A stretch of DNA of 64,000 nt from Candidatus Omnitrophota bacterium (GTDB lineage: Bacteria; Omnitrophota; Gorgyraeia; JABMRG01; JAFGKX01): the NCBI GenBank assembly GCA_043797125.1, contig JAZDPX010000033.1, positions 34,527 to 98,526 of the forward strand, read 5' to 3'. The notes beneath the pieces are model-generated. The model was given only the letters and a program-made list of their open reading frames with translations. It did no database searches and was not told the DNA's origin. The position numbers were made by a program, and so were the translations under genes. This document shows positions 10,032-54,492 of this stretch, piece by piece (the first letter of the stretch is position 1; each line of letters begins with the position of its first letter).

Positions 10032-11093
10032 CTAAAAACAAAGCTCCCTTTTTAGCAAATCATCATACCTTTTTATTATATTTTCCCACGCAAAGGCCAT
10101 GCTGGCGCCCTTGACATTTCCTTTGTTAAAATTAGAGTTTTCTATCTTATCAATAAACAGGCCTGCGTCGTTATTTTTGACCAAATACCCTGTTTTCGAT
10201 TCCAGCACAGCGTCACTGATGCCGTCAACCGCATTTACGATTGACGGCAGGCCGCAGCTGGCTGCTTCTATTGCGACTATGCCAAAACCCTCCGGGTCGT
10301 TTTTCACGTTTTGGTTTGGCATTACAAAAAGATACGCGCAGTTGTATAACAGGCTAAGCATTGCCTTATCCAGCCGGCCAAGGATATACACTCTTTTTTC
10401 CAGCCTGAGGCTTTGCACAAGCCTTGATATGTTTAATCGTTCCGGGCCGTCGCCGACAACCATATAAACATACCCGCTACTCAAGTTTCTAAAGACATGT
10501 TCTATAAACCAGGATACGCCTTTTCTTTTCACCAGTCTGCCTACCGTAAGCAATATTTTCTTATTATCTAAATCAACCCCCAGCGCAGCCTCAAGCCTGT
10601 TTAAGGCCTTGGCGGGTTCCATGCCAATCGCATATTCGGCCGGGTCCATGCCGTTAGGTATGAAGGCGCACAGGCTTTTGTTTATTCCTCTTTTTGCGCA
10701 CTCCCTCGCGGTGTTATTGCTTACGCATATTACCTTGTTAAACGTTCTTATGAGTCTGGGCACAAGCGCCTGATAAAAATAATTATCAAATGTTATATCA
10801 AGCCCGTGGACAGTAATAAAAACCGGGATGCCGAATATGCGCTTTATAAAAAACCCTATCGGGGCAAGCGCGGCATCGCACAGATACAAACAATCGTAAT
10901 CTTTTTTTGCGGCCAAAAAAACGGCCTTGGAAAAAGCGTATGGCAAAAACCAAAACAATTTCACCTGCCTTCCCCTAAGCAGGATTGTCCTTACCTTGTG
11001 ATAGCGCGAAAGATGGATTATCAGATTTTTACTATATGCCTGCATGCCGCCTATGGCCGGCGGGTACTTTCTTGATATCAACAGTATTCTCAT
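10032..11093 (-). CDS. Glycosyltransferase family 4
   Basis: EGFGIVAIEAASCGLPSIV E-x7-E motif. Confidence 0.8.
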   Translation of the reverse strand: MRILLISRKYPPAIGGMQAYSKNLIIHLSRYHKVRTILLRGRQVKLFWFLPYAFSKAVFLAAKKDYDCLYLCDAALAPIGFFIKRIFGIPVFITVHGLDITFDNYFYQALVPRLIRTFNKVICVSNNTARECAKRGINKSLCAFIPNGMDPAEYAIGMEPAKALNRLEAALGVDLDNKKILLTVGRLVKRKGVSWFIEHVFRNLSSGYVYMVVGDGPERLNISRLVQSLRLEKRVYILGRLDKAMLSLLYNCAYLFVMPNQNVKNDPEGFGIVAIEAASCGLPSIVNAVDGISDAVLESKTGYLVKNNDAGLFIDKIENSNFNKGNVKGASMAFAWENIIKRYDDLLKRELCF

Positions 11094-11106
11094 GATACAA
11101 CAATTT

Positions 11107-11829
11107 CTATTTTTGGCTGTTGTTTTTATCCGTTTTTTTCAGTATAAAAGCAAATTGATAGTCATATCTTAACGGAATAAACATCCATAATATTCTGCAT
11201 ACCATTCTCTTAGCAATGCCGGGAAAATTTGTTTGCTGAAACTTCATGTACCATTTATCGCGATGGATATCAATGATTTCAAAACCGTTTCTGATAAAGG
11301 CGCCCTTCCATTGTTCCAATGATAACAGATTCTCGTTTATATCCTGCTGCTCCGTGCCGTATTTGGCGAAAAGTTTCCAAAAAATAAAATTGGAATTAGG
11401 CACCATTATGCAAAACAGGGCGTTGTTTTTCGCGACCCGCTTCATTTCAAAAAGGCCCTTATCCATATCCAGAAAATGTTCCAAAGACCCCAGGCATGTA
11501 ACATAATCAAAGGTATTATCGCCGAACCTTATGTCTTCCGCCTCGCCGACAGAGATAACCGAATCAGGAGAAATGCCCTTTGCAAGCCTTACGGCCTCTT
11601 CGGAGATATCGATGCCAAAAGTCTCCAGCCCTCTTTTTGATGCCGCGCAAAGCAAAAGCCCTATGCCGCAGGCAACATCTAAAAGCCTTCTGCCTCTTTG
11701 CGACCCCAGATAATCCAAAAATACGGTATATGCTTCGTACGGCCTTTTGTTTCTTACTCCTTCGGAGGCATATTTTTTATTATACCAGCTTCTGACTTCT
11801 TGTCCGGTCGGCGGTTTACGCATTCTCAT
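11107..11829 (-). CDS. Class I SAM-dependent methyltransferase
   Basis: LLDVACGIGLL motif I; 240 aa. Confidence 0.65.
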   Translation of the reverse strand: MRMRKPPTGQEVRSWYNKKYASEGVRNKRPYEAYTVFLDYLGSQRGRRLLDVACGIGLLLCAASKRGLETFGIDISEEAVRLAKGISPDSVISVGEAEDIRFGDNTFDYVTCLGSLEHFLDMDKGLFEMKRVAKNNALFCIMVPNSNFIFWKLFAKYGTEQQDINENLLSLEQWKGAFIRNGFEIIDIHRDKWYMKFQQTNFPGIAKRMVCRILWMFIPLRYDYQFAFILKKTDKNNSQK

Positions 11830-12775
11830 CTCTTATTTTCGATCCGGCCTGGGCCTTAAACTCATTAAAAAACACAAAAGTGAATATTATGCCCAAAAAC
11901 AGCACAACCAGAATGCTTATGGCCCTATCCACTATTGAGGCCAATGCGCCGTTTATGGCGGTAAATCCCATAACAGCGGATGTAATGGTTATAGCTGCCT
12001 CTTTAAAACCTAGATTTGCCGGTGTAATACTCACGAAAACAAAAAGCGAAACTATATTTGCCATAATTAATATTGCGATAAAATCGGGCCGGATACCTAT
12101 GGCCTGGTATGCAAAAAATAACCTTCCGGACAATACAAGCATGGATAAAAGGTTTAGCCCTGATAATATCAGAAGCAGGCTTTTCTGTTTCCTGAAATAA
12201 TTAAGGCCCGAAAATATTTTATTCACAGCTGCGACTTTAAAGCTTTTCCCGGCAAACCATTTCCAGGAAATCATAAAACCGCCGATAAAAATTCCGACGG
12301 AAATAAAAAATAATAATATCTTAAAATTAAAAATACCAGCAAGAAAATACCTAAGACAAATTAGCGCTATGCCGAATACCGCGTTTACCAAAAAAGAAAA
12401 AAAATAAAACCCCATATAGGCGGATAAAAAACTCAAATAGGGAAAATCATATTTGTTTTTCATGTAAAATGCTCTGGCGGTAACTCCTGCCTTTGCAGGC
12501 AATATATAATTACCTATACTGGTGAGGCAGGATAACCCGAACCATTCCTTAAAAGTCAGCCTTACGCCAAAGGCATCTGTAAGTTTTTTTGCGGAAAAGG
12601 CATTGATAATAAGATACAAAAACGTCAAAAATGTTATTGTAATTATATATGACAAAGAAATATGCGAAAGTTTATATAGCTGTTCTTTTCTTGCCATAAT
12701 AAAAGAAACAAATGCCGCAAGTATCGCAAATAATACGAGATAAGAAACCAAATAGGCCTTGTTATTCCGGCGCAT
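11816..12775 (-). CDS. Polytopic membrane protein (flippase-like / LPG-synthase-TM-like, UPF0104)
   Basis: 319 aa with about 8 predicted TM helices and no soluble domain. Confidence 0.4.
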   Translation of the reverse strand: MRRNNKAYLVSYLVLFAILAAFVSFIMARKEQLYKLSHISLSYIITITFLTFLYLIINAFSAKKLTDAFGVRLTFKEWFGLSCLTSIGNYILPAKAGVTARAFYMKNKYDFPYLSFLSAYMGFYFFSFLVNAVFGIALICLRYFLAGIFNFKILLFFISVGIFIGGFMISWKWFAGKSFKVAAVNKIFSGLNYFRKQKSLLLILSGLNLLSMLVLSGRLFFAYQAIGIRPDFIAILIMANIVSLFVFVSITPANLGFKEAAITITSAVMGFTAINGALASIVDRAISILVVLFLGIIFTFVFFNEFKAQAGSKIRDENA

Positions 12776-14333
12776 ATATAGACCGCCTGATTGATATGAC
12801 GCTTATAACCAGAATAACTGCCAAAATTACCATTGCCGATATCACTGCAGATAAAAGCCCCGGGGAAACCGCAGGGACATTCACCCACCATACATCCCAA
12901 ATATCATAATTTTTCATAGACGCGATTACCGGCTTTACAAACCAATAATCTGGGTTATATTCAAAATTCAGAGCCGGATACCCGAATACCCTGCCAACGG
13001 CAGAGGTAAATAAATACCAGCTCCCTCTTATCGGGCTTAATTCGGGTATAAAGTTTATAAAATATTCCTGCAGGCTTAATCCTTCTTTGACAAAAAGCAG
13101 GTATCTGCTAAAACTTATAAACAGGCACGGCAGCTGGACTAAAAACCCCAATGCGGAAAACAGAATCAACATAAGCTTCCTGATAATCGCCCTTGATTGT
13201 TGTATAAATTCTGCTAAAAATATGCACATAAAAGGAATTGTGGGGTATAGATAGCGCGGCCCCCATGAGAATATTGAACCTCTGAGAAATATGTATGCGT
13301 AAAATAAAAAATTTATGATTATAAACGCGAGAATATATAGGGTAAACTTCTTATCTTGTTTTAGCAGGCCCCTTATCCCGAAAAATGCCAGTATCAAGGG
13401 GGCGTTGTAGTAAAAGTACCCTTTCCCCGCGCTCAGCAGATAATAAAACAACCCTTTAAAAAAATTAGGGCCGAATATCAACCCTTTTTGCGTAAATACG
13501 GTTTCTATGCCTGCGCCGGGGTCAACTGCATTGCTTCTTTTCATAAAATAAATAAATAGCGACAGAATAAAACAGCAAGAGACCGGAATAATAACGGCAA
13601 GCCAAAGCTTGACAGCGTGCCTGGCTGATTTAAAATCCGCGCCCTTGTATACTAAATAGAAAAAAATCAGAAAAAGGTATAAAAAGGAATTCATCTTTAT
13701 GAGCAGGCTGTATCCTATCAATGCGCTGCTTAATAACGCGTAACGCGCAAGGGATTCTGATTCATATTTATGCAAAAATAAAAAAGCCGACAGCACAAAA
13801 AGTGTAACCGCAGGCTCTGAAAACCCCGAACGCGTATAGACAAGACTCATTGTGCAGAAGCTATAGCATAAAACCGTTATAACCTTGGTTTTTTTATCAT
13901 AACCAAGCCTTCCTAAAAGCATAAAAAGAATTAACGCTGTTAGCGCGCCGATTGCTGGATTTGCCAGCGAAACACAAAACTGGGTTATGTAATCATGGCC
14001 AATGCCGGAAAACGCCTTGGATATAATATGGCCCAACGCGTAAAGCGGCACAAGCAAAATAGGCATCCCGATGCCATAGGATGAATACCTGTTGCCTGCT
14101 GCGCCGGGTTTTTTACCTGCCTCATATTTCATCTCCTTTATGCCAAAAGGCCTGTCATAAATACTAATATCGCCGTCTAAAACTATGCTTTCGGCTGTAA
14201 GATAATTCTCCAACCCGTCGCCGCCATAATGTCCGTTTGAGAAAAACACAAAAAATGAGAAGAGAAAAATAAAAATATGCATATGCAGTAAAAATTTTCT
14301 TTTTCTTTGCAAAGAAAACAATCCCGGCATCAT
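12762..14333 (-). CDS. GT-C fold membrane glycosyltransferase (ArnT/PMT-like)
   Basis: Large polytopic protein. The ORF-track start is 14498. The start is refined to M56 (ATG 14333..14331), which overlaps the TGA of the upstream CDS as TGATG. Confidence 0.5.
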   Translation of the reverse strand: MMPGLFSLQRKRKFLLHMHIFIFLFSFFVFFSNGHYGGDGLENYLTAESIVLDGDISIYDRPFGIKEMKYEAGKKPGAAGNRYSSYGIGMPILLVPLYALGHIISKAFSGIGHDYITQFCVSLANPAIGALTALILFMLLGRLGYDKKTKVITVLCYSFCTMSLVYTRSGFSEPAVTLFVLSAFLFLHKYESESLARYALLSSALIGYSLLIKMNSFLYLFLIFFYLVYKGADFKSARHAVKLWLAVIIPVSCCFILSLFIYFMKRSNAVDPGAGIETVFTQKGLIFGPNFFKGLFYYLLSAGKGYFYYNAPLILAFFGIRGLLKQDKKFTLYILAFIIINFLFYAYIFLRGSIFSWGPRYLYPTIPFMCIFLAEFIQQSRAIIRKLMLILFSALGFLVQLPCLFISFSRYLLFVKEGLSLQEYFINFIPELSPIRGSWYLFTSAVGRVFGYPALNFEYNPDYWFVKPVIASMKNYDIWDVWWVNVPAVSPGLLSAVISAMVILAVILVISVISIRRSIYAPE

Positions 14334-15019
14334 CAATCCCTTTCTATTTCGTCCTTGTGCGCCTTGTAATAACGCGCAAAAGTAATGTAGGGCTTTATCC
14401 AGCTTAAAGCGCCTGCAATAGCTAAAAACACTAACCCTGCATACAATTTGTTTATTAGCACGAAAAATGTTATAACCCAGTACAACGATATCTCCCATCC
14501 TATATAAATGCCCTTTTTTATCTTTGCTTCAAATGACGGCCCTTTAATAAATTGCTCTTTCGTGTATAATGCAAATGAAGCCAGAAAGCAATGCCCAAGC
14601 GCCGTAAACCCCCATATAAATACTGCGGCGTTATTCTCAACTATATAGGCCCTGTAAGATAGGGATAGGAATATAAAAATAATTTTAATGATGTCAACGA
14701 ATGAATCAAACCACCTGCCGAATTTAGACGAAAGCCCTTTATACCTTGCGTATTGGCCGTCAAGCGTATCAAAAACATATCCTAAGTGCAGAAACAACAA
14801 GCCGAAAATTATGTACGGATAGGCAAAAAACGCAAAAAAACCGCTCCCTATTATTACGATAAACAAAGAGAGTAAGCTTATCTGATTCGCAGTTATGTTT
14901 AAGTGTTTGAAAAATCTATTAAGCAGAAAATTGGAAATAGGCCGGTAGATTAACATGCTAAACAGCTCCTTATGCCCTGCATCCTTTTCTTTATAAGTAA
15001 AATTTTTTGTTTCAGCCAT
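14333..15019 (-). CDS. CDP-alcohol phosphatidyltransferase family protein
   Basis: DTLDGQYARYKGLSSKFGRWFDSFVD matches D-x2-DG-x2-AR-x8-G-x3-D-x3-D. Polytopic. Confidence 0.7.
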   Translation of the reverse strand: MAETKNFTYKEKDAGHKELFSMLIYRPISNFLLNRFFKHLNITANQISLLSLFIVIIGSGFFAFFAYPYIIFGLLFLHLGYVFDTLDGQYARYKGLSSKFGRWFDSFVDIIKIIFIFLSLSYRAYIVENNAAVFIWGFTALGHCFLASFALYTKEQFIKGPSFEAKIKKGIYIGWEISLYWVITFFVLINKLYAGLVFLAIAGALSWIKPYITFARYYKAHKDEIERD

Positions 15020-15047
15020 ATTTATCTCCTACATGTATATTAAGGCA

Positions 15048-15803
15048 TCAATCTTTTCGTAACAGCCATATATATGTCGGGCATAGCCAATACGCGTATT
15101 TCACTATCAATATGGCCAGCCTTTGCTTGAACGACTCAGGCGCAATCATCTCTGTAGCGCAATATTTTTGTGGATCTATAATAATTTTCAATGTATAGTC
15201 TGAAACATTAAATTGAGAGACTAGATTCCTCAGGCCATGTAATGTTAAGTGGTTTTCATAATAGAAGTTCCCTTTTTTTAGTGCCCGCAGATAAAGGTGC
15301 GCTAATGCCTTCGGCATAATTGATAGCAGCGGCAATTTATAGTGCATCTCGATAAATTTTAAACGGTTGGCGGCGGCAAAATAGCAAACACCCTCTGGCT
15401 TAAGCACTCTATATATTTCAGACATAAGTTTAATTGCATCCGGAACATGTTCATACACATGAGCGCAAATAACAATATCAAATGACGCATCTGCAAAGTT
15501 CAGGTTCATCCCGTCGCTAACGCTAAACGCCAAATTATCAGAAGCGCAGTTTTGCCGCGCATGCTTTATTGCCTGCTCGTCTATATCTATTCCTGCAACC
15601 CTGGCAAATTTATCGCTAAGCGCCTTCGATATAATTCCTGCGGAACAGCCTATATCTAAAAGGCTTAATCTTTCAAGGCCTTCGGAATAATAGTCATCGA
15701 GCACAGCAAACATCTTCCTGGCTTTTTGCTGGCGTTTCTGTGTATTATATACTGCGCAGGAATGAGTTTGTGAAAATCCATATTGGTAATTATTGTTTTT
15801 CAT
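15048..15803 (-). CDS. Class I SAM-dependent methyltransferase
   Basis: LLDIGCSAGIIS motif I. The ATG overlaps the upstream TGA as ATGA at 15800..15803. Confidence 0.65.
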   Translation of the reverse strand: MKNNNYQYGFSQTHSCAVYNTQKRQQKARKMFAVLDDYYSEGLERLSLLDIGCSAGIISKALSDKFARVAGIDIDEQAIKHARQNCASDNLAFSVSDGMNLNFADASFDIVICAHVYEHVPDAIKLMSEIYRVLKPEGVCYFAAANRLKFIEMHYKLPLLSIMPKALAHLYLRALKKGNFYYENHLTLHGLRNLVSQFNVSDYTLKIIIDPQKYCATEMIAPESFKQRLAILIVKYAYWLCPTYIWLLRKD

Positions 15804-16738
15804 TTCAAATTCTGCTTCTTCAACCTGTACAATACTTCCTCATTCAGCCTTCTATTAGCAGATATAATATCTCCCAAAAAACCTAACAACATTGTTCCAA
15901 AGCCCATAATAACTAAAATAGCGGCAATAACTAAAGACTGCATATGGCCGCTGCGTCCGACTGTAAAATAAAAATAGAGAAACCTTAGAATAAGTAAAAG
16001 GCCACCGCAGGCAAAGACAGAGCCAACACAAAAAAATGTTTTCAATGGTTCATACATAAGATAAATACGCAATATCGTACTCATCGATCTAACGATATAA
16101 GACGATATGCTCTTTATGAGCCTTGACTCCCTAAGCTTGCTGTTTGTTCTTATATCGACGTGCGATATCGGGATATCCTGCCTTCCTATCTGAATTATGG
16201 ACTCCAATGTGTATGTATACGAAGAAAAGATATTCAGCCTTAGCGCGGCGTCTCTCGAATATGCCCTGAAGCCGCTTGTCGTATCAGGTATATTCGTCCC
16301 TGAGAACTTACGAACCATATAACTTCCGAGCCTCTGCAGCAGTTTTTTCGCAAAAGAAAAGTGTTTTATGGCCTTAATATCCCTGCAGCCAATCACTACC
16401 TCTGCCTTTTTTTCCAACACCGGCCTTACCAGTTTTTCTATGTCCCGGCCGCAGTACTGGTTATCTGCGTCGGTATTAACTATAATATCAGCCCCAAGCT
16501 CCAAAGATTTTTCTATGCCTTTTTTAAACGCCTCTGCCAGGCCCTTCCTTTGAGGCAGGCAAAGGATATGTGTTACCTCGTTCGCCTTAGCTATCGAAGA
16601 GGTTTTATCTATGCTGCCATCATCTATAACCAAAGTTTCAATGCTGTCTATGCCTTCTATTTTTTTAGGCAAATCTTTTAAGGTTATAGGAAGGGTTTGC
16701 GCTTCGTTATAGCAGGGTATCTGGATAATAAGCTTCAT
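15800..16738 (-). CDS. GT2 polyprenyl-phosphate glycosyltransferase (DPM1/ArnC/GtrB-like, C-terminal TM anchor)
   Basis: IQIPCYNEAQTL...LVIDDGSIDKT plus two C-terminal TM helices. Confidence 0.75.
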   Translation of the reverse strand: MKLIIQIPCYNEAQTLPITLKDLPKKIEGIDSIETLVIDDGSIDKTSSIAKANEVTHILCLPQRKGLAEAFKKGIEKSLELGADIIVNTDADNQYCGRDIEKLVRPVLEKKAEVVIGCRDIKAIKHFSFAKKLLQRLGSYMVRKFSGTNIPDTTSGFRAYSRDAALRLNIFSSYTYTLESIIQIGRQDIPISHVDIRTNSKLRESRLIKSISSYIVRSMSTILRIYLMYEPLKTFFCVGSVFACGGLLLILRFLYFYFTVGRSGHMQSLVIAAILVIMGFGTMLLGFLGDIISANRRLNEEVLYRLKKQNLK

Positions 16739-16762
16739 ATCATCTGCTCCTTTTTTGGCGCA

Positions 16763-17503
16763 TCAATCTAACTCTTTTTTAGCGACTATATATGACAACT
16801 TGCATATCCACACAACCGGCATCGCTATGCCGTAAAAAATAACTACCGCAAACACAACACCGCATCGGCAAAATAATTCTGTTATGGTTGCTAATGTTAT
16901 TATATTCATAACGGGCGGAAAAGTGCACAATTTATGCAGCGCAGAAAATAATTTTCGCGCTAAAGAAGGATTTTTTGCCGTGAGCTTATCTGTGTCAAGC
17001 GGCAGATCCCTTTTCCCCGCGAAATATAAAACAGAGTTCCTTAAATCCACCAATAAAATCAAAAGCATAGACGATATCGCGGCTGACGAAGAAAACAAAA
17101 AAACATAACCTATTGCATATTTTCGCCATAAACCGTAACCGATGCCGATAAAAACAAGCGGGTGGATAATATAATGACATATGTTGTCATAGTAAATTCC
17201 TGTAACGGTCGAGGTATTCCTGTAGCGGGCTATCTCACCGTCAACATGGTCTAATATATACCAAAGCTGTAAAAACAGCGCTGCGGTGAACGCGCCTATT
17301 TTTGAACCTTCTGTGAAAAATACGCAGGCTACTATACCTGTAAGCAAAAATATAGATGTCGCGGTATTCGGCGTTAAGTTCATCGCTAAAAATACCCGCG
17401 TTATGTATATAGAAAACCTGCGGGCAACAAATTTACCATACCAGACATCATACTGCTCTCTGGGTTTTTGGCATATGGTTCTAAGCTGGCTGATACTTTC
17501 CAT
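16763..17503 (-). CDS. CDP-alcohol phosphatidyltransferase family protein (second paralog)
   Basis: DHVDGEIARYRNTS...G...D motif. The start is refined to M24 (ATG 17503..17501), which overlaps the TAA of the decarboxylase as TAATG. Confidence 0.7.
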   Translation of the reverse strand: MESISQLRTICQKPREQYDVWYGKFVARRFSIYITRVFLAMNLTPNTATSIFLLTGIVACVFFTEGSKIGAFTAALFLQLWYILDHVDGEIARYRNTSTVTGIYYDNICHYIIHPLVFIGIGYGLWRKYAIGYVFLFSSSAAISSMLLILLVDLRNSVLYFAGKRDLPLDTDKLTAKNPSLARKLFSALHKLCTFPPVMNIITLATITELFCRCGVVFAVVIFYGIAMPVVWICKLSYIVAKKELD

Positions 17504-18645
17504 TATAGCAGCTTCTCCCTGTGCGTTTTTTTGGCGCTTAACCTCATAAACTTTTCTTTTATGGCTTTGCATGTATACTTTTCCGAAATTCTTGGCCTTT
17601 TCTTGTTTTCATTATTAATCAATATATGCACAAAGGCCGCGCCGCGCTTCTTAAGCAAGCCCGGAAAAGCGCTGCGCAACTTGTCCTCTTGCGCAAAACT
17701 ATAAATATTTTTATAACCGGTGGCTTGCGCTATTTTGCAAAAATCGATATTTTGTGAAAGCGCAGGCTGGCCTCCTGTTGACGCGTAAGTACCGTTATCC
17801 AGCACAACATGCATCAGGCTTTTGGATTTCTTATCAGCGACAGACGCCATAGAGCCCAAATGCATCAGGCAGCCTCCGTCTCCGTCTAAAACAATTACCC
17901 TCTTGTCATTATTAACATGCCTTGCTATTCCCAAACCGATTGAATGGGCATGCCCCATAGACCCAAGCATATAAAATGCAGGGTTAAAATCCTCTATGCC
18001 TTTTTTGCTAAGGTTATAAAATGCCTCCCTGCTTATATACCCGTTTGTTGTGACAAAATACGCTTTGTTGTGCCCTGCGCTCATAATAATGTCTATTGCC
18101 TCACTTAGCGGCATTGAATACTTGGATTTTAAAGCAAACTCGCTTTCTTCTTTATCTATTATACCTTTTTTTAAAATTAAGGCTGCCGGTTTATTTGTCT
18201 TCTTTGCCAGCCTGACTATATATTTTACTTCATTTCTGAAATTGTTTTTTGTTAATACAGCGTACGGCACATTCAATGTCTTTAGCATTGTTTTTATCTT
18301 CTTGCCTGTTATATCGTGTTCCGGGGCGTCTTTTGTCCCCGGCTCGCCCCTCCACGAAACTACCAATAAAGCCGGTATATCATATATCTGATTCAAAGAT
18401 GTAAGGCTGTTTATGGTATTACATAACCCTGAATTCTGCATGAGTAAAACAGGCACCTTTTTTGTAATAAGGAAACTGCCGGCTGCCAGACCCATTGCTG
18501 AAGCCTCGCTTACCGGATTTAACACTTCGCAGGCTTTATCCCGCGTAAGCCCGGATATTAACGGCGCCAATATGGAACACGGCACTTCTATATAGGGGCT
18601 GAGGTTATTTTTTTTGAATTCTCTTATTAATTGGTCTGCTTTCAT
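17503..18645 (-). CDS. ppd: Phosphonopyruvate decarboxylase (ThDP-dependent)
   Basis: ThDP-enzyme architecture of about 380 aa. N-terminus MKADQLIREFKKNNLSPYIEVPCSIL is typical of Ppd/sulfopyruvate decarboxylase. It lies immediately downstream of PepM. The ATG 18645..18643 overlaps the PepM TGA (TGATG). Confidence 0.75.
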   Translation of the reverse strand: MKADQLIREFKKNNLSPYIEVPCSILAPLISGLTRDKACEVLNPVSEASAMGLAAGSFLITKKVPVLLMQNSGLCNTINSLTSLNQIYDIPALLVVSWRGEPGTKDAPEHDITGKKIKTMLKTLNVPYAVLTKNNFRNEVKYIVRLAKKTNKPAALILKKGIIDKEESEFALKSKYSMPLSEAIDIIMSAGHNKAYFVTTNGYISREAFYNLSKKGIEDFNPAFYMLGSMGHAHSIGLGIARHVNNDKRVIVLDGDGGCLMHLGSMASVADKKSKSLMHVVLDNGTYASTGGQPALSQNIDFCKIAQATGYKNIYSFAQEDKLRSAFPGLLKKRGAAFVHILINNENKKRPRISEKYTCKAIKEKFMRLSAKKTHREKLL

Positions 18646-20270
18646 CAACTCACCGAAGAGGAAAATATAGCGCACGCCTTTTTATAATCATCGAAGTTGT
18701 GTATTTCCATCCAACCGCTCGTTACCTCATATGCAAGGACCTCATATTTTTTATTGATCAAATGCCCGATTAACTCGGCAAACGAAGCTGTCTGCATAGG
18801 CCTTGACTTCTTATACTCGTCTACCAGCGCCTTCATTCCCTTTTTTGAAAGCATGGCAAGCCCTATAAACTCAAAGTGCGCCTCCTTCTCCGAAATATCA
18901 TTACCGATATTTCGTATAGGATTTTTTCTATTTAAATCCATTGTTCTTAAATTATCAAGGTGCGCTGTTTTAGCGACCACAAGCTCAAGCTGCTTGTTGC
19001 GGATGTGGGTTTTTTTGTATGTACTGTCAACTACCAGTATTATATCATCGTCCTTTTTAAGCAGCCTTTGCAAAAGGTACTGGTCTACAAGTATGTCGGA
19101 ATATAAAATCAAATTCTTGTCGGCAATCTTATCTATGCCTTTCATTATTGAATACATTATGCCCTTACTTCTATAGCTTTTGTTTTCTATGATCCCGGCG
19201 CCTTCAAGCTTTACGTTGGAGCTTTTATATCCCACGACTACGCTTATATCCTGCACCCCTGCGGTATTCAACGTTTCTACGTTCCTTTGCAGCAGCGATT
19301 TTCCGTTTATGTCCAACATCCCTACAGGCCTATCCTCAAGAAGAGGTTTAAGAGAGTTATCCATTTTTGGCCCAGCTGCCGGTATTATGGCTTTAATGCT
19401 TCCTGTATTTGTTTTTAAATACTTTCTTTCATTGCTTTTCATAATATGCATACCTTGCAGCCTGAAGACCTCATCCATTGAAACGATTTTTGAATCAATA
19501 CCTGAAATCCCGTTATCTTTTATATATTTAAGGGCCTGTTTTATGCACTTAATGCCGGCCCTCATTCCGTGGTTGGCATATATTACTACGCTTGCTCCAA
19601 GGTCTCTCATTTGCTTTTCGCTTAAGTCATACATGGTTGGGCATAAAACAAGAGGAGCTCTTTTCTTCCATGCCTTGCAGAAATTGATTATCTCATCCGG
19701 CGTTTTCGATTTTGAATGTATAAATATTCCGTCTGCTCCAGCCTCTATATAAGCCTGCGCCCTTTTTAAAGCCTCGTCCTGGCCCCATCCAGCTATCAGC
19801 GCCTCTACCCTGGCAAATACCATGAAATCATCCGTTGTTTGAGAGTTTTTTGCCGCCATTATCTTGCCGACAAATTCCGCGATAGGCGCAAGTTCCTGCC
19901 TGCCGGGAATAAAACTGTTAACTTTCGGAAATTGTTTATCTTCTATGCAGACAGCGCTAACGCCTGCTGATTCAAATTTTCTTATCATATGCATAACGTT
20001 GTTTGAATTACCAAAACCCGTATCGCAATCCACCATAATAGGTATGGAGGTTGCATTAACCATGCTTTCCGTAGCATACAGCAAATCGCTCATTGTCAAA
20101 ATATTTGCGTCAGGAACAGCATGCGAAGTGGCTATTTCAAAGCCCGACGCCCACACCCCGTCAAAACCTGCCTCCTGGACCAGTTTTGCGGTTAAGCCAT
20201 TGTGCGCCCCTACTATCTTTATAAGCTTTCCTTTGCGAATAAGGTTTTTAAAACTGATTCTTTCTCTCAT
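18645..20270 (-). CDS. pepM: Bifunctional phosphoenolpyruvate phosphomutase / nucleotidyl(cytidylyl)transferase (PepM-PntC/Fom1-like fusion)
   Basis: N-terminal isocitrate-lyase/PEP-mutase fold carries the PepM-specific EDKQFPKVNS (EDKX5NS) motif. C-terminal about 230 aa is an NTP-transferase domain (KAIIPAAGPKMDNSLKPLL...). The start is refined to M12 (ATG 20270). Confidence 0.8.
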   Translation of the reverse strand: MRERISFKNLIRKGKLIKIVGAHNGLTAKLVQEAGFDGVWASGFEIATSHAVPDANILTMSDLLYATESMVNATSIPIMVDCDTGFGNSNNVMHMIRKFESAGVSAVCIEDKQFPKVNSFIPGRQELAPIAEFVGKIMAAKNSQTTDDFMVFARVEALIAGWGQDEALKRAQAYIEAGADGIFIHSKSKTPDEIINFCKAWKKRAPLVLCPTMYDLSEKQMRDLGASVVIYANHGMRAGIKCIKQALKYIKDNGISGIDSKIVSMDEVFRLQGMHIMKSNERKYLKTNTGSIKAIIPAAGPKMDNSLKPLLEDRPVGMLDINGKSLLQRNVETLNTAGVQDISVVVGYKSSNVKLEGAGIIENKSYRSKGIMYSIMKGIDKIADKNLILYSDILVDQYLLQRLLKKDDDIILVVDSTYKKTHIRNKQLELVVAKTAHLDNLRTMDLNRKNPIRNIGNDISEKEAHFEFIGLAMLSKKGMKALVDEYKKSRPMQTASFAELIGHLINKKYEVLAYEVTSGWMEIHNFDDYKKACAIFSSSVS

Positions 20271-20272
20271 TT

Positions 20273-21493
20273 TTACCTCTTTACGCCGGCATTTCTCCAG
20301 CACGCCGGGTCTCCGGCAAAAAATGCGTCCGGATTAAGCCTGGATGGGTCATAGTTGCCTTTTTCGTCAAATGCCGAATCATCGTAGGCCCTGGTGCGGC
20401 AGCCGTAGCAGCGGCCTTCCTTGCTAAGCTGGCAATTCGCGGTTGAACATTTTGAGTTCTCATGCAGCTGAGAATATATATTCCTGAATCTCTTTACCTT
20501 CTCCGACATAACAATATCGGTAAACAAAGTGTCCCTTATGTTTCCCAATGCCCAGAAATCCGGCGCCTCCGAGCAGGGCAGCACAACGCCGTCCGCCCTT
20601 ACATGGACGCCTCCTAAATGCCTTGAGCATGCCTTATTCTCAACCCACGGGCTTTGCGCCTTCCAATGAATGTCAAATTCCTTTCCATCTATATCAGCTA
20701 CCTTTTCAAACAACCTCATAATACTCTCTGAATTCAATGTTCCGCCTGATAATTTTCCGCAAAGCATTACAGATACATTTTTTTTAGCTGTGCCGTGAAC
20801 ATGGACAGGTATGATAAAAGGCCTGAAGTTATGCCTTCTAGACCATCGGAAAACATCACACACATCGTCATAGTTTAAAACAGTAACTACGGTATTAGTT
20901 GAAAGAGGCGGCATATCAGGCCTTCCATACCCTGCCTTTATAAGGTGCGCGAACCCCTGCATCATCTTTTTTGAGCCGCCTTTAATGCCGAGCAACTTAT
21001 CCTGTATGTCTTCATTTAACGAATCTAGTTTGCAGCATAATGAAATACCGTCTTCGGCAAGCCTTTTTGCCTTTTCTTCGTTAATAACAGCTACATCTGT
21101 AAAGCTTACCAGATCAAGAGGCAGGCCTTTCTCTTCAAAAAGAGCCCTTGCATATTCTACCACATGGAAGAAGGCTTCGCCACCTTTACCCTTGAAATCA
21201 GGCGGATTCCAGACTAAAGGCTCCCCGCCCTGCATGTTTATTATCCTTACCCCTAACCCAGCTGCCTGGCTGATAATATCCTTTGCCTCATGCATGGTCA
21301 ATTGATTTGTTCTCTCGGGAGAACCCTCGGCATAACAATAAATACACCGGAAATTGCACTTTTGTGTAACCATGATATCGACCGACAAAAGCACAGCGCC
21401 CTGCGATTTCATACGCTCTATAATATCCCTGCCTAATCCCGCCATTCCCGGATAAAGAGTTATGTTTTCCTTATTTGCTGGTTTTCTCTCCAT
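20273..21493 (-). CDS. Radical SAM enzyme with Cys-rich C-terminal (SPASM/twitch-like) domain
   Basis: CNFRCIYC (Cx3Cx2C), GGEPL, and C-terminal CSTANC...CYGC cysteines. The stop lies 2 nt before the PepM start. Confidence 0.7.
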   Translation of the reverse strand: MERKPANKENITLYPGMAGLGRDIIERMKSQGAVLLSVDIMVTQKCNFRCIYCYAEGSPERTNQLTMHEAKDIISQAAGLGVRIINMQGGEPLVWNPPDFKGKGGEAFFHVVEYARALFEEKGLPLDLVSFTDVAVINEEKAKRLAEDGISLCCKLDSLNEDIQDKLLGIKGGSKKMMQGFAHLIKAGYGRPDMPPLSTNTVVTVLNYDDVCDVFRWSRRHNFRPFIIPVHVHGTAKKNVSVMLCGKLSGGTLNSESIMRLFEKVADIDGKEFDIHWKAQSPWVENKACSRHLGGVHVRADGVVLPCSEAPDFWALGNIRDTLFTDIVMSEKVKRFRNIYSQLHENSKCSTANCQLSKEGRCYGCRTRAYDDSAFDEKGNYDPSRLNPDAFFAGDPACWRNAGVKR

Positions 21494-21511: not shown

Positions 21512-22387
21512 TTATCCGAACGCAGCTATCAGATATATTCCTATAAATATAATAACCGCGCCGGCAAATCTTACCTTAGCGTACTTTTCTTTTAAAAACA
21601 AAATTCCGTACAAAGAACCAAAAACCACGCTTATCTGCCTTAATGCGATAACATATGCAACCTTTGACATGCGAAACGCATAAAGGATTAATATATAAGA
21701 TAGAAATTCCAGCACCGCGGCTAACGCGATGCTGAATTTATCTTTTTTCGTGATATAAAAATAGTTCCTGCGCCTTTCCTTCATAAATAAAAGATACCCT
21801 AAAAACAAAAAACCCGACAAGGCAAAAAAAAGGTAAAAAAACAAAATAGGGTGCATTAACAGAACTCCCTTTTTATCAACGACAGAATAACATGCCGAAG
21901 AAAAGGCGGTTAACCCCGCGAAAAATACAACCTTTTTATTTATATGCCTAAAAGGATCAAGGATTCCTGAAAAGGATATCTTTTTTTGGTTTATAAGATA
22001 TGCCCCCAACATGACAACTATAATTCCCAATATTGCTATCTTTGACGGGACCTCACCTAATAATATAAATGCCATAAGAAGGACAAATACGGGAGAAGAC
22101 CTTATAATCGGATATGACAAAGACATGTCCGCGCCTTCGTAGGTCTTGCACAGGAATATCTGGTAAAAAAAATGAGTGCATGCGGAAACTATTACAAGCA
22201 CCCAGCCTGCGATGCTGACATCTTTTAGCGGATACAAAAACAGAATAAAACAAAACGCCAGCGTATAAAAAAGGTGTATGTTCAGATAAAATATCACCTT
22301 GTCCTCGCTTTTTTTCAGCAGCATATTCCACAGAGGATGGATAACGCTTGATATAATTACCAGCAAGAAACTAATTTCTGTTATCAT
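21512..22387 (-). CDS. EamA/DMT-family transporter (LicB-like)
   Basis: 291 aa with 10 TM helices in two 5-TM repeats. Confidence 0.6.
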   Translation of the reverse strand: MITEISFLLVIISSVIHPLWNMLLKKSEDKVIFYLNIHLFYTLAFCFILFLYPLKDVSIAGWVLVIVSACTHFFYQIFLCKTYEGADMSLSYPIIRSSPVFVLLMAFILLGEVPSKIAILGIIVVMLGAYLINQKKISFSGILDPFRHINKKVVFFAGLTAFSSACYSVVDKKGVLLMHPILFFYLFFALSGFLFLGYLLFMKERRRNYFYITKKDKFSIALAAVLEFLSYILILYAFRMSKVAYVIALRQISVVFGSLYGILFLKEKYAKVRFAGAVIIFIGIYLIAAFG

Positions 22388-23147
22388 GACAACCTATTTT
22401 TTCAATCTCGCTTAATGCCTTTTTATAATCCTCAACAGTGTCTATTTCCCGCCAGCCGCCTTTTACTGTTACGCAGTGAACCGCAATTCCTGAATCCGCC
22501 AGATCCTGAACCATGTCTGTTAAATACGCCTTTTCAAATACCGGAGCCCTCTGAAATGGCTTGCCGTCATAAATAGGCTTTATCTTATTAAAATGGTTTC
22601 TAAAAATAGCCGCTCCCTTTTTTGTGCATTTTATCATGCCGACAAATTCACCGTGAACGGCGTTTTTATCACCAAGGGCCTTGCCGATTTTAAGTACCTT
22701 TTTATCGGAATCCATTATAACATTTTCCGCTTCATCAATCGGGTGGTCTTTTCTGCCTTTATAATAGGCGCGCCAGTCGGTGTCAACCAGAATGGCTATA
22801 TCTTTTTTGCAATTTAACAGCCTTTTCGCGATCTTGGCGTCAAACAATATATCCGAATACGAAGCTATAAACTCATCGTCCATCTCCCGCTGGGCGCAAA
22901 AAAGTGAATGCAGTATATCGTTATGAAGATATCTTTCATTTACATAATATTTGAGCCCCGGATAATCTATCTTTTCTTTTTTATAACCCACTATGACTGA
23001 TATGTCTTTCACGCCGGCGCTCCTGAAAGCCTCAAACTGGGATTGAAGGAGAGTTTTCTTATTAAATTCCAGCAGGCATTTAGGCAGGTCATCGGTTAGC
23101 TCATTCATCCTCTTGCCTCTTCCCGCTGCTATAATAATCGCTTTCAT
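22371..23147 (-). CDS. LicC-like nucleotidyltransferase (phosphocholine/phosphonate cytidylyltransferase family)
   Basis: MKAIIIAAGRGKRMNELTDDLPKCLL N-terminal NTP-transferase signature. It is a paralog of the C-terminal domain of the PepM fusion. Confidence 0.7.
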   Translation of the reverse strand: MKAIIIAAGRGKRMNELTDDLPKCLLEFNKKTLLQSQFEAFRSAGVKDISVIVGYKKEKIDYPGLKYYVNERYLHNDILHSLFCAQREMDDEFIASYSDILFDAKIAKRLLNCKKDIAILVDTDWRAYYKGRKDHPIDEAENVIMDSDKKVLKIGKALGDKNAVHGEFVGMIKCTKKGAAIFRNHFNKIKPIYDGKPFQRAPVFEKAYLTDMVQDLADSGIAVHCVTVKGGWREIDTVEDYKKALSEIEKIGCHDNRN

Positions 23148-26116: not shown

Positions 26117-27337
26117 CTACATAAGGACATAATCGCCCTCAAACTTGTCTTTTTCTGACGTAAGGATATAATGCTTATTTTCCTGTATCGGCAACCGGAC
26201 GTTTTCAACGCCGGGATCGTTTTTATGATTTTTGACATGGTCCTGCAAAACCCACTCGCCCCGGCTGTTTTTCTTCCATGCCAGGGGGTCGCGCATGTTT
26301 TCCACGCTATTTACAAATTCTTCCTCTGTAATCTCAAGATATCTTAAAATATTATCGAGATCTTTGGGCCTTTGCCCGTCGTATTTTTCCACCATGGCAA
26401 TGCCTTCCTCTCTGGTCATGCGCCTCTGTCTTATATCCAAAGAGGCGTGGTCGGTCGCTCTTCCGTAGCCGAATTTTAACCACCTTAAATAATCATGGGC
26501 GCCGCCGCAATGGTAACACTCAACATTCTCATATGTATTATAGGTGAGCGATTCGCATGCTGTAATAAATCCATATTTTTCAATCATCAACTCCGTCTGC
26601 TTTTTTGCATTCCAATTTAAAAAATTCCCTATATACAGGCCCCTTATATTTAATTCCTCCAACTCTTCCTCGGAAGGATAAATAGCCCACCTTAAATCGT
26701 CCGCCGTTATACCCTCCTTCTCATCTATTAAATCCTGGTAATCATACCCCCTCATCCCATGCTCTGTTCTGAATTTGCGTGTCATCTCAGCCATATCATG
26801 GTGGGAATACATTCCGCCCAGAAGCAAATGGCCTAGCTCTCCCCAAATCATAAGCGGCACCTTATACTTAACCGCCATTTGAACCGGAAAGGTATATACC
26901 CCGCAATGACAATGCCAGCAAAAATCTCCCATTTTTCTTAAGGCGACTCTCGCAAGCTTTTTAATTATCTTAGGGTTAGGAGTAAATCTTATGTGGTCTA
27001 CGCCGAATTTTTTAACCATATTTGTCAGGTTTTGCATGCCATGCCAAGTGTTAAATTGATGATTAAATGTAACCAAAAGAGGCCTTAAGCCATAGACTTC
27101 CTTAATAATATGTGTCTGAAAATGGCTATCTTTTCCGCCGCTGACTGGGATAATGCAGTCATATTCGCCCTTACCTTTATAAGACATTAATATATCCCGA
27201 AGCTGTTTTTCTTTCTCTTTCCAATTTATCTTATATCTTTCCTCGTCAACCCTGCAACCGCTGCAAACGCCCCTTTCGTCAAAAGTCAATTTTACCGCTG
27301 AACTTTCAGGGTACACACACCTTGTACAATACCTCAT
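26117..27337 (-). CDS. N-acetyl sugar amidotransferase (WbuX-like, PP-loop ATPase)
   Basis: SGGKDS PP-loop and N-terminal Cys4 zinc ribbon (CTRCVYPE...CSGC). The start is refined to ATG 27337 (MRYCTRCV). Confidence 0.7.
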   Translation of the reverse strand: MRYCTRCVYPESSAVKLTFDERGVCSGCRVDEERYKINWKEKEKQLRDILMSYKGKGEYDCIIPVSGGKDSHFQTHIIKEVYGLRPLLVTFNHQFNTWHGMQNLTNMVKKFGVDHIRFTPNPKIIKKLARVALRKMGDFCWHCHCGVYTFPVQMAVKYKVPLMIWGELGHLLLGGMYSHHDMAEMTRKFRTEHGMRGYDYQDLIDEKEGITADDLRWAIYPSEEELEELNIRGLYIGNFLNWNAKKQTELMIEKYGFITACESLTYNTYENVECYHCGGAHDYLRWLKFGYGRATDHASLDIRQRRMTREEGIAMVEKYDGQRPKDLDNILRYLEITEEEFVNSVENMRDPLAWKKNSRGEWVLQDHVKNHKNDPGVENVRLPIQENKHYILTSEKDKFEGDYVLM

Positions 27338-27351
27338 AAAACCCCCTCCTG

Positions 27352-47087: not shown

Positions 47088-47870
47088 TTAATCAGAATTG
47101 CATATCTTTTTCCTTGCCAGGACAAATAAGTCTGATCCAAAACCAGTAAAACCGAATATTCTTGTTAAAAAAAGGTCGAAACTATTGAAACATTTTTGTT
47201 TTCTTAGTTTTAGTTCCTTAAGATTGAATGGGTTGCGAACAAAAGATATTATATAGCACGCTAGCGCAATGGGTTTTATCACGCAGCGGGTAAATGTGCT
47301 TGAAATATTTATGCAAATTTCAAATCCTTCATCTTCTATTAATTCGGCGAATGTCTTTTTTGAAAAAAAGCGTATGTGGCCTAAATTGCTTCCGTAGGTA
47401 ATTTTTGTTCTAACGCCAAAAGGGTATAAAAATCTTGTCCGCAAGTCATACATATTAGGCACAGCCGCGATAAAATACCCTCTGGGCTTTAACACTCTCA
47501 TAATCTCAGATACGGTTTCGCTAGGATCCATAATGTGCTCTAGCGCCTGACAACAAGTCACAACATCAAATTTTGAATCCTCATAAGGCAGGCCTGCGTC
47601 AGCTGCTATCAGCTGCGCCTTAATTCCCTTTGCAATACATCTTTCAATTTTTTCCTTATGAATGTCTACGCCGTATACCTTATTTTCTTTAGAGAGAAAC
47701 GACCCTAAAAGCCCTTCTCCGCATCCGACATCGAGGATATCGAGATTTTTTCCTATCTTACTTATTTTATCCAGGATTATTCTAAAGGAAACTTCGGCGT
47801 AGTATGTATCCATCGTAGCCGGAGGGGCTTCAATGGTTGAGTCGTAATAATGTTTTTTATTCATAATCAA
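47088..47870 (-). CDS. Class I SAM-dependent methyltransferase
   Basis: ILDVGCGEGLLGSFL motif I. The ATG overlaps the upstream stop (47867..47870). Confidence 0.65.
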   Translation of the reverse strand: MIMNKKHYYDSTIEAPPATMDTYYAEVSFRIILDKISKIGKNLDILDVGCGEGLLGSFLSKENKVYGVDIHKEKIERCIAKGIKAQLIAADAGLPYEDSKFDVVTCCQALEHIMDPSETVSEIMRVLKPRGYFIAAVPNMYDLRTRFLYPFGVRTKITYGSNLGHIRFFSKKTFAELIEDEGFEICINISSTFTRCVIKPIALACYIISFVRNPFNLKELKLRKQKCFNSFDLFLTRIFGFTGFGSDLFVLARKKICNSD

Positions 47871-54485: not shown

Positions 54486-54492
54486 GAAATAT

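Follow-up and report, generated by a model that had tools for sequence, protein, structure and literature searches.

Roughly one in two phosphonate gene clusters of microbes is thought to serve the tailoring of the cell surface (PMC6697681, PMC8942020). Li and Horsman (PMC8942020) equate the "Burkholderiales_CDP-OH" cluster families with the Group 1 phosphonolipids described by Yu et al. 2013 and give them a seven-gene core of Ppm-PntC, a second PntC, Ppd, a 2-aminoethylphosphonate (AEP) transaminase (AEPT), a 2-oxoglutarate (2OG) oxygenase and two phospholipid-type genes. The predicted products are phosphonolipids with a 1-hydroxy-AEP headgroup, and the product has never been characterised (PMC8942020); the Nostoc literature names the membrane protein of Group 1 hpnL (PMC5987646). 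Here, we compare these and other described systems with a 64-kb stretch of a Candidatus Omnitrophota metagenome-assembled genome (MAG; ~41% GC; hereafter the window), in which two CDP-alcohol phosphotransferases (CDP-OH enzymes), referred to as A and B, are encoded in one operon together with a phosphonate cassette and glycosylation genes. NCBI lists proteins 100% identical to A and B, encoded on a 174-kb contig of a Candidatus Omnitrophota MAG. Related loci are designated by L numbers.

The window matches Group 1 in five of the seven genes, namely a PepM-PntC-type fusion, a second, free PntC, Ppd, a six-transmembrane (TM) CDP-OH enzyme and an LPG_synthase_TM/HpnL-like protein. It lacks the AEP transaminase and the 2OG oxygenase, carrying a radical SAM (rSAM)/SPASM enzyme and an EamA protein instead, and the set is embedded in an ArnC-like GT2/GT-C block of a 64-kb glycan locus. 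A Group 1 example, pBRH01 of Mycetohabitans rhizoxinica (L100), encodes a 231-residue CDP-alcohol phosphatidyltransferase and an LPG_synthase-domain protein, the gene for the latter lying one gene (the 2OG oxygenase) downstream of the CDP-OH gene. While this enzyme has the canonical fourth Asp (D4) of the family signature and stands equally far from the profiles of A and B, the window encodes two CDP-OH enzymes, one of them with a His at D4.

Among characterised proteins, AF2299 and IPCT-DIPPS of Archaeoglobus fulgidus, which use soluble CDP-glycerol or CDP-inositol donors, share with A and B the six-TM core, the signature on TM2/TM3 and a PNxxT/S cytosine motif, and the NTP_transf_3-type cytidylyltransferase that is fused in these proteins stands adjacent to B-type genes. 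A and B differ from them in sequence (16-22% identity), in the absence of a fused cytoplasmic domain, in the His that B has for the proposed base Asp, and in a context of glycan assembly rather than compatible-solute synthesis. The eukaryotic CPT/EPT/CEPT1 enzymes of the Kennedy pathway, to which the initial annotation of this DNA had drawn an analogy, belong to the same superfamily, and A and B would carry out a reaction like theirs, using a head group activated with CDP or CMP; however, they possess 10 TM helices and a G2ExxD3HxxD4 dyad, whereas A and B have six TM helices and no Glu/His dyad.

With the Lic pathway (LicB/LicC/LicD) and with PntC tailoring (Rice et al. 2019, PMC6697681), the window has in common a LicC/PntC-type CTP activation of a head group. 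In contrast to the Lic pathway, a CDP-alcohol phosphotransferase rather than LicD would act as the transferase, no kinase is encoded and the head group would be a phosphonate. Both include a DMT-family membrane protein (EamA, the family of LicB), and in both the head group would reach the cell surface. Finally, as in the three-component systems ArnC/ArnE-F/ArnT, GtrB/GtrA/GtrC and CsbB/GtcA/YfhO, a GT2, a candidate flippase and a GT-C are encoded in one operon, and loci related to the window also carry formyltransferase, deacetylase and DegT genes, like the Arn pathway. Unlike in these systems, the candidate flippase is MprF/HpnL-like instead of GtrA or ArnEF, and CDP-alcohol phosphotransferase and methyltransferase genes are inserted between GT2 and GT-C, an insertion for which we know of no precedent. 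The cluster kind as such is known bioinformatically; its three notable features are the Asp-to-His replacement at the proposed base, the CDP-OH insertion in the glycosylation block and the rSAM-SPASM partner.

The arrangement on which the initial annotation of this DNA had focused, A, a methyltransferase, a GT2 and B, is real, as all four genes yield Pfam matches and lie on the minus strand, like all credible genes of the window. The operon runs from the LicC-like NTP transferase via EamA, rSAM-SPASM, PepM-NTP, Ppd, B, the ArnC-like GT2 and the methyltransferase to A, followed by GT-C, the MprF-like protein, a second methyltransferase (MT2) and GT4 (Table 1). The stop codon of Ppd runs into the start of B (ATG at 17503), 24 nt separate B from GT2, the methyltransferase ATG lies over the GT2 stop codon (4-nt overlap), and the last base of the A TGA is the first base of the GT-C ATG at 14333 (one base in common), so that GT-C comprises 523 residues and not the 578 of the maximal open reading frame (ORF). 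Overlaps of 14 nt each join GT-C to LPG_synthase_TM and LPG_synthase_TM to MT2. B, GT2, the methyltransferase and A thus form the middle of one translationally coupled operon. For B, the start at 17503 gives the 246-residue form, as in the NCBI annotation, while the ORF runs on to 17572. The two cytidylyltransferases noted initially, one fused to PepM and one LicC-like, are likewise present; the best PDB match of the free-standing enzyme is LicC (1jyk, E 6e-17), and PntC (6pd1) matches with E 4e-6.

Family placement and signature motifs of A and B

A and B both exceed the PF01066 gathering score of 22 and hence belong to the CDP-alcohol phosphotransferase superfamily. The initial annotation had proposed that they use CDP-headgroup donors, with PgsA and the CDP-diacylglycerol (CDP-DAG)-dependent inositol-phosphate transferases as the groups in which they should not fall. 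Ranking of HMM, profile and fold matches, on which our placement is based, put them in neither. Neither protein reached an NCBIfam equivalog cut-off. The best NCBIfam match was archaetidylinositol-phosphate synthase (58.3 bits for A and 46.7 bits for B, against a cut-off of 180), and neither qualifies for NF045883/NF040950 (phosphatidylinositol-phosphate [PIP] and archaetidylinositol-phosphate synthase; 170-180 bits). With the PgsA model (TIGR00560, cut-off 109), A scored 23.8 bits and B gave no match; the PgsA structure 7drj reached E 0.3 with the A profile and was absent for B, with fold scores (TMq) of 0.37-0.44. As A and B remain below every cut-off, we ruled out membership in PgsA, PssA, PIP synthases (PIPS) and archaetidylinositol-phosphate synthases (AIPS).

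In profile searches of the PDB, AF2299 ranked first for both proteins (E 9e-23 for B, 3e-19 for A). The runners-up were IPCT-DIPPS (3e-11) and then PIP synthases (~1e-9) for B, and PIP synthases (~5e-9) for A, for which IPCT-DIPPS came far lower (1.5e-4); CHPT1/CEPT1 (E 1e-5 to 2e-2), PssA and PgsA were far behind for both. The AF2 models (pLDDT 93.8 for B, 85.5 for A) display six TM helices each, and Foldseek again returned AF2299 as the top match (TMq 0.65 for B and 0.75 for A, probability 1.0), with PIPS and DIPPS next. The cytosine-binding motif P(D/N)xx(T/S) is found at the start of TM1 as P45-N46-T-A-T49 in B, with T49 nearly invariant, and as A44-N45-Q-I-S48 in A, with N45 invariant and a family consensus of PNQIS.

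AF2299 and DIPPS process no lipids and have a small hydrophilic donor pocket, which in AF2299 accommodates the glycerol of the CDP-glycerol donor, while lipid-acceptor enzymes such as CPT/EPT have 3-4 extra TM helices (Clarke et al. 2015); CHPT1 has ten TM helices in total. The G2ExxD3HxxD4 dyad is missing from both proteins, the residue after G2 being Arg in A and Ile in B, and that after D3 being Ser in A and Asn in B. With six rather than ~10 TM helices and no Glu/His pair, a CPT/EPT-type enzyme was ruled out, and the modelled architecture argues against a simple CPT/EPT-like reaction on diacylglycerol. The proposed use of a CDP-headgroup donor gains from the closeness to AF2299 and from the position of B-type genes beside LicC-like cytidylyltransferases, a cytidylate kinase and PepM-Ppd in several phyla (see below). 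A search of the accessible literature retrieved no characterised CDP-OH enzyme acting on glycans or phosphonates.

In the family signature D1xxD2G1xxAR...G2xxxD3xxxD4, eight residues have been called absolutely conserved, and D4 is likely the catalytic base (Clarke et al. 2015; PMC4634129); a D93N exchange nearly abolished the activity of MtPIPS (Clarke et al. 2015). The initial annotation had read a full motif in both proteins. Only A is complete (DTLDGQYAR-x8-GRWFDSFVD, 8/8 residues), and its motif is invariant across 22 orthologs. B retains 7/8 residues (DHVDGEIAR-x8-GIYYDNICH), the fourth Asp being replaced by His110. Among 41 aligned relatives of B, this His is nearly invariant (conserved to at least 90%). 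Of the 78 genome loci examined, 66 had a motif that was readable at standard spacing, and 47 of these carry the His, as do the insertion-bearing relatives of L012, L015 and L016. Judging from this conservation, the D4 His of B is not a sequencing oddity. Its column aligns to D4 of AF2299 in a profile alignment, and G102, D106 and H110 lie on one helix in the AF2 model. In CHPT1, His133, at a different position, has been proposed as the base; by analogy, the D4 His of B could serve as a catalytic base. Some B-type proteins diverge further at D3/D4 (e.g. GLFLEHTSA, GAYISRLLGHH), namely those at 5648-6457 of L041, 9998-10870 of L050 and 9986-10792 of L061, which are PepM loci of UBA9089, Dehalococcoidales and ANME-1. 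The catalytic arrangement is therefore not uniform in the B-type subfamily.

A and B had also been described as paralogs. They do belong to the same superfamily, but a recent duplication was ruled out, given 29% identity over 90 residues (BLASTP) and separate ortholog sets with different synteny. As their family profiles align over 192 columns (21% identity, probability 99.6%; hhalign), A and B appear to be two subfamilies of one clade. Database searches returned 33 relatives of A among 5.8 billion sequences, essentially all Omnitrophota-like, and 65 of B; a metagenome scan for further A loci gave only 8 short contigs and nothing new. Tandem CDP-OH pairs, the first with the canonical fourth Asp and the second with a His, as combined in A and B of the window, are present in Actinomycetota, including Bifidobacterium (L055, L057, L063, L064, L067, L071, L075, L078, L080), in L078 with a TagF-like gene and a GT2 close by. 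Since CDP-alcohol phosphotransferases are dimers, a heterodimer of D-type and H-type proteins is conceivable.

Gene neighbourhoods of A, B and the phosphonate module

Scanning of 185,579 species genomes yielded 126 relatives of B; 80 loci were kept, 78 of which contained a B-type ORF and were analysed. Their hosts include Omnitrophota, Scalindua and Planctomycetia, Anaerolineae, Dehalococcoidia, Patescibacteria, DPANN and ANME archaea, Bifidobacterium and Streptomyces, among others. A LicC-like NTP transferase gene lies within 10 kb of the B-type gene in 41/78 loci, within 3 kb in 35/78, and immediately upstream on the same strand in 14/78. In two PepM-containing loci, a cytidylate kinase gene directly precedes the B-type gene (L012, 8693-9993; L015, 9244-10017), which fits a CMP-releasing reaction with local recycling of CMP; L012 also encodes a NUDIX hydrolase.

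Upstream of the NTP transferase/B pair lies a variable head-group cassette. It consists of PepM-NTP, Ppd and AEP transaminase in L041; of PepM-NTP, Ppd and an iron-dependent alcohol dehydrogenase (Fe-ADH), a route to hydroxyethylphosphonate (HEP), in L015, L050 and L061; and of EamA, rSAM-SPASM, PepM-NTP and Ppd in the window, L003, L012 and L016. In Patescibacteria (L023), the cassette is represented by a GpsA-like glycerol-3-phosphate dehydrogenase, a route to CDP-glycerol, and in Candidatus Orphnella (L085), where the B relative is 52% identical, by HAD, 2-hydroxyacid dehydrogenase, SDR and DHQS-like genes. By synteny, the head-group cassettes beside B appear interchangeable. The remaining neighbours of B are GT4 or ArnC-like GT2, methyltransferases, LPG_synthase_TM and GT-C (PMT_2 or YfhO), located downstream in L006, L010, L012, L013, L016, L041 and L085 and on the opposite strand in L023. 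In L015 and L050, the gene directly after the B-type gene encodes a GT4; in L041, a GT4 gene follows an LPG_synthase_TM gene that itself comes directly after the CDP-OH gene. The Patescibacteria loci L023/L025 (6809-17226) encode Wzx, the GpsA-like NAD-dependent dehydrogenase, a LicC-like NTP transferase and a B-type CDP-OH enzyme, with PMT_2 GT-C, GT2, GT4 and ArnC-like GT2 genes on the opposite strand. This gene content implies that the candidate phyla radiation carries a putative CDP-glycerol-dependent version of the B module.

The surroundings of A are fixed. In L003, L004, L098 and L099, A lies between the ArnC-like GT2 and GT-C, while L001 has an extra GT2 and a formyltransferase/deacetylase gene between A and GT-C, and the contig of L097 stops inside the gene after A. 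An LPG_synthase_TM gene follows GT-C in all A loci but L097 (L001, L003, L004, L098, L099) and also in L085. The GT-C orthologs of the A loci show 45-53% identity, and L085, which lacks A, retains an ortholog at 45%; the GT-C of the window has no sequence match in the PDB. GT2 is the best-conserved gene of the block, with orthologs at 62-74% in Omnitrophota and Planctomycetia loci that contain A and/or B; its alignment to structures of ArnC (E 5e-13) and to DPMS (E 3e-10) extends over residues 2-293, and its TM segments span 231-262 and 263-295. MT2 orthologs (59-65% identity) occur in L003 and L098, and relatives of GT4 (43-53%) in L003, L098 and the Patescibacteria locus L023. As for flippases, none of the GtrA or ArnEF type is encoded in the block, where LPG_synthase_TM and EamA proteins are the only candidates.

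The block around A is arranged in the same way with a phosphonate cassette (window, L003) or without one. Next to A, L004, L097, L098 and L099 have a cassette with an ATP-sulfurylase-like gene and an ORF of ~180 residues, and L001 has neither cassette type. In these four loci, a PUA_2 plus ATP-sulfurylase gene, the ~180-residue ORF, which has no Pfam match, and sometimes a PHP-like gene occupy the slot of PepM-Ppd in the window, directly upstream of an A-type or B-type CDP-OH gene. The shared slot suggests interchangeable anion-activation cassettes, possibly for sulfate. In L004 and L098, no NTP transferase gene is found near A, and A appears to be tied to glycosylation genes, not to a gene that supplies its donor. 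These neighbourhoods disagree with the initial idea of two donors matched to two transferases, as A occurs without an NTP transferase in the latter two loci and two NTP transferases accompany a single CDP-OH enzyme in L012, L016, L041, L050, L061 and Mycetohabitans. They also lend no support to the methyltransferase upstream of A as an N-methylase of an aminophosphonate: the window contains no aminotransferase, and the nearest relatives of this methyltransferase, which reaches no NCBIfam equivalog, are 52-58% identical and come from L010 and L013, with no PepM within 10 kb.

PepM of the window is genuine, with EDKQFPKVNS at residues 121-130 (EDKxxxxxNS motif), a match to PDB entry 5unc at E 2e-95 and a TIGR02320 score of 313 bits, just under the cut-off of 319.55. 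An iterated PepM HMM was discarded, since the fusion made the search drift onto NTP domains. Our Pfam scan covered every ORF of >=100 residues (at least 100) in the window and contained no AEP transaminase, Fe-ADH or 2OG oxygenase. As neither an aminotransferase nor an Fe-ADH is encoded in the window, neither AEP nor HEP is predicted as the product. The rSAM/SPASM enzyme belongs to a tight family of ~80 orthologs with 54-77% identity, beyond which identity drops to 32%, and adjoins PepM and Ppd in every context examined (window, L003, L012, L016, L101, L102, L103). Its closest relatives (L003, L012, L016) likewise have no AEP transaminase or Fe-ADH, and an EamA gene accompanies the set there and in L102. 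Based on this synteny, phosphonate biosynthesis may have an uncharacterised early branch, possibly independent of oxygen, that is defined by the rSAM/SPASM enzyme. The module is combined with two LicD-family transferases and AEPT in L101 and with a canonical six-TM CDP-OH enzyme in L103, while L102 is a free-standing EamA, rSAM, PepM-NTP and Ppd island of a Deltaproteobacterium with no transferase. LicD-family proteins are glycan-directed head-group transferases, and their presence in the transferase slot of L101 supports a LicD-like, glycan-directed role for the CDP-OH enzymes.

Proposed donors and acceptors of A and B

From the computed gene identities, motifs, folds and synteny, we infer the donors and acceptors of A and B, the order of the steps and the identity of the phosphonate as follows. 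Operon packing, the AF2299-like class, the cassette context of B, the fixed context of A and the LicD parallel in L101 lead us to favour, tentatively and with somewhat less than even confidence, a model in which A and B add their groups to a lipid-linked sugar, which is then flipped and transferred by GT-C. On the cytoplasmic side, GT2 would charge polyprenyl phosphate with a sugar, as its homology to ArnC and DPMS suggests. B would then transfer the CMP-activated head group made by the cassette to a hydroxyl of the lipid-linked sugar or its precursor, releasing CMP. In the window, this head group would be a phosphonate, formed from phosphoenolpyruvate by PepM, Ppd and the radical SAM enzyme and cytidylylated by the LicC-like enzymes. 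A would use a CDP-alcohol, for which no gene lies beside A, to attach a second phospho-substituent, and the methyltransferase would cap a hydroxyl or other group. Finally, the MprF/HpnL-like protein would flip the decorated lipid, and GT-C would deliver the decorated sugar to an extracytoplasmic acceptor, e.g. lipopolysaccharide or another glycan. The decoration model gives every gene of the block a role.

Several points weigh against this model. We know of no enzyme of the CDP-alcohol phosphotransferase family with a lipid-linked sugar acceptor, and the lipids that MprF-type domains are known to flip are phospholipids rather than polyprenyl sugars. No gene for making the donor of A lies beside A, and the gene content of the window, which has no transaminase or alcohol dehydrogenase, points to no particular phosphonate. 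In B, the His in place of the proposed base Asp could signal changed chemistry or a loss of activity, and so could the more divergent D3/D4 residues of L041, L050 and L061. Furthermore, neighbourhoods were read in flanks of plus or minus 10 kb in MAGs, and the Mycetohabitans cluster, which combines a CDP-OH enzyme, an LPG_synthase-like protein and two PntCs with no glycosyltransferase, is a better fit to a phosphonolipid.

In the phosphonolipid route, the main rival, which we consider possible but on balance unlikely, B and/or A would put the CMP-phosphonate on diacylglycerol, ceramide or a lyso-lipid, the MprF/HpnL-like protein would flip the product to the outer leaflet, and GT2/GT-C would be a separate system or serve lipid glycosylation. 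This is the default reading of CDP-OH-type pepM clusters in the literature, and the Burkholderiales core is free of glycosyltransferases. Eukaryotic enzymes of the superfamily convert CMP-AEP and diacylglycerol into phosphonolipids, and MprF flips aminoacylated phosphatidylglycerol; PF03706 is named after the membrane region of lysyl-phosphatidylglycerol synthase, TIGR00374 is termed "flippase-like", and LPG_synthase_TM directly follows B in L041. In Omnitrophota, however, LPG_synthase_TM is coupled to GT-C and not to a CDP-OH gene, and even in loci free of phosphonate genes A keeps its fixed, translationally coupled place between the ArnC-like GT2 and GT-C. A and B have six TM helices; the CPT/EPT enzymes, which accept diacylglycerol, have 3-4 more and a G2ExxD3HxxD4 dyad that A and B lack. 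The structures nearest to A and B process no lipids. Swappable head-group cassettes inside Wzx-type glycan loci resemble serotype-style decoration of glycans, and no bacterial phosphonolipid has been characterised from such a cluster (PMC8942020). The initial annotation had left the choice between a phosphonolipid and the decoration of a polyprenyl-linked glycan; phosphono-decoration of such a glycan fits the synteny better, the CPT/EPT-like route being the poorer fit.

A phosphatidyl-anchored glycolipid resembling phosphatidylinositol mannosides (PIM) or lipomannan (LM) is improbable. A and/or B would join CDP-DAG to a soluble polyol or polyol phosphate to give a special phospholipid, which would be glycosylated by GT4 inside and, after flipping, by GT-C with the polyprenyl-phosphate sugar made by GT2. 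The set of CDP-OH, GT4, polyprenyl-phosphate GT2, GT-C and flippase mirrors the logic of mycobacterial PIM/LM assembly, and A without a dedicated NTP transferase (L004, L098) is compatible with a housekeeping CDP-DAG donor. The best NCBIfam matches of A and B are indeed archaetidylinositol-phosphate and PIP synthases, but their scores of 58 and 47 are far below the cut-off of 180; PIP synthases are second-best in fold, but AF2299 beats them by about ten orders of magnitude in E-value. The soluble LicC-like cytidylyltransferases and the cytidylate kinases that recur beside B speak for a soluble CDP-X donor, and the Pfam scans revealed no inositol-phosphate synthase or other polyol-phosphate gene in the window. 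We regard as very improbable a soluble product, formed by B from a CMP-phosphonate or CDP-alcohol and a soluble alcohol or sugar phosphate in the manner of DIPP synthase, which would be a small cytoplasmic or exported phosphodiester or phosphonate ester, its location in a glycan operon being incidental. The nearest structures, AF2299 and IPCT-DIPPS, act on soluble substrates only, the NTP transferase/B pair resembles a split IPCT-DIPPS, and the transferase-free island L102 suggests a diffusible phosphonate in some lineages. Against a soluble product, B-type genes reside in glycan loci with Wzx, GT2, GT4 and GT-C across many phyla, and in the window B is coupled to Ppd and lies 24 nt from GT2, while A is coupled to GT-C.

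Under the decoration model, the operon and its relatives name candidates for the enzyme that moves the phosphonate after CTP activation, the six-TM CDP-alcohol phosphotransferases, many of them with a D4 His, and the synteny suggests an ArnC/ArnT-like route whose polyprenyl-phosphate sugar would be the acceptor. The comparison also tells apart two subfamilies, A tied to glycosylation machinery and B to interchangeable head-group cassettes, and the rSAM/SPASM partner of PepM-Ppd may define an unstudied phosphonate in anaerobes. A broader proposition, which we consider doubtful, is that AF2299-like six-TM enzymes, including the widespread D4-His subfamily, are the missing movers of CMP-phosphonates and, in other lineages, of CDP-glycerol and other activated head groups onto polyprenyl-phosphate-linked sugars, with MprF/HpnL-like flipping and GT-C delivery to follow. 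If true, this would be a previously undescribed, cassette-based decoration of surface glycans, and the rSAM/SPASM enzyme would represent a new oxygen-independent early branch of phosphonate biosynthesis. If the phosphonolipid route applies, the value would be smaller, a new phylum and gene combination for an already predicted cluster type.

The surrounding glycan locus

The 64-kb window is one very large surface-glycan locus. According to the Pfam scan, it contains GT2, GT4 and GT9 glycosyltransferases, five GT-C-type genes (PMT_2 or YfhO), a Wzx flippase, two NeuB and two CMP-nonulosonate synthetase genes, three B12-radical SAM enzymes, and sugar epimerases and dehydratases. Table 1 lists the operon around A and B and further features.

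Table 1. Genes of the operon and further features of the window, with the matches that identify them
Feature	Position	Strand	Evidence
LicC/PntC-like nucleotidyltransferase, free-standing	22371..23147	-	NTP_transf_3 54 bits
EamA/DMT-family membrane transporter	21512..22387	-	PF00892 90 bits
Radical SAM/SPASM enzyme	20273..21493	-	Pfam Radical_SAM + SPASM
PepM fused to LicC-like nucleotidyltransferase domain	18645..20303	-	PEP_mutase 206 bits + NTP_transf_3
Phosphonopyruvate decarboxylase Ppd	17503..18675	-	TIGR03297 325.7 bits (cut-off 312.5)
B, CDP-alcohol phosphotransferase, 246 aa	16763..17503	-	PF01066 29.2 bits (cut-off 22)
ArnC/DPMS-like polyprenyl-phosphate GT2	15800..16738	-	PF00535 79 bits; two C-terminal TM helices
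Class I SAM-dependent methyltransferase	15048..15803	-	Methyltransf_11 93 bits
A, CDP-alcohol phosphotransferase, 228 aa	14333..15019	-	PF01066 49.1 bits (cut-off 22)
GT-C (PMT_2/ArnT-like) membrane glycosyltransferase	12762..14333	-	PMT_2 34 bits (cut-off 26.1); multiple TM segments
MprF/HpnL-like "flippase-like" protein (LPG_synthase_TM)	11816..12775	-	PF03706 64 bits; TIGR00374 43.4 (cut-off 43.2)
Second SAM methyltransferase (MT2)	11107..11829	-	Methyltransf_11 65 bits
GT4 glycosyltransferase	10032..11093	-	Glycos_transf_1 101 bits
ORFs without Pfam match	26117-27400, 27352-29157, 47867-50311, 50330-51376	-	Pfam scan
Three B12-binding radical SAM enzymes	29162-31204, 31919-33202, 36903-38297	-	Interleaved with NeuB and CMP-synthetase genes
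Transketolase-like protein	38269-40233	-	Near NeuB/CMP-synthetase/B12-radical SAM genes
MBOAT	51333-52763	-	
Five GT-C-type genes (four PMT_2, one YfhO)	12762-14333, 52803-54539, 54493-56760, 56929-58476, 60151-61542	-	Pfam

No aminotransferase of any Pfam class was detected in the 64-kb window, despite the two NeuB, the two CMP-nonulosonate synthetases and PepM-Ppd; the locus may therefore produce nonulosonic or ulosonic acids without an amino group (KDN- or Kdo-like), unless genes for amination lie elsewhere. The B12-radical SAM enzymes suggest an unusual C-methylation or tailoring of nonulosonate-type sugars. For four large ORFs of the operon (348-814 residues), Pfam returned nothing at E 1e-3 to 1e-4 or better. 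The five GT-C genes and MBOAT imply several separate extracytoplasmic modification steps.

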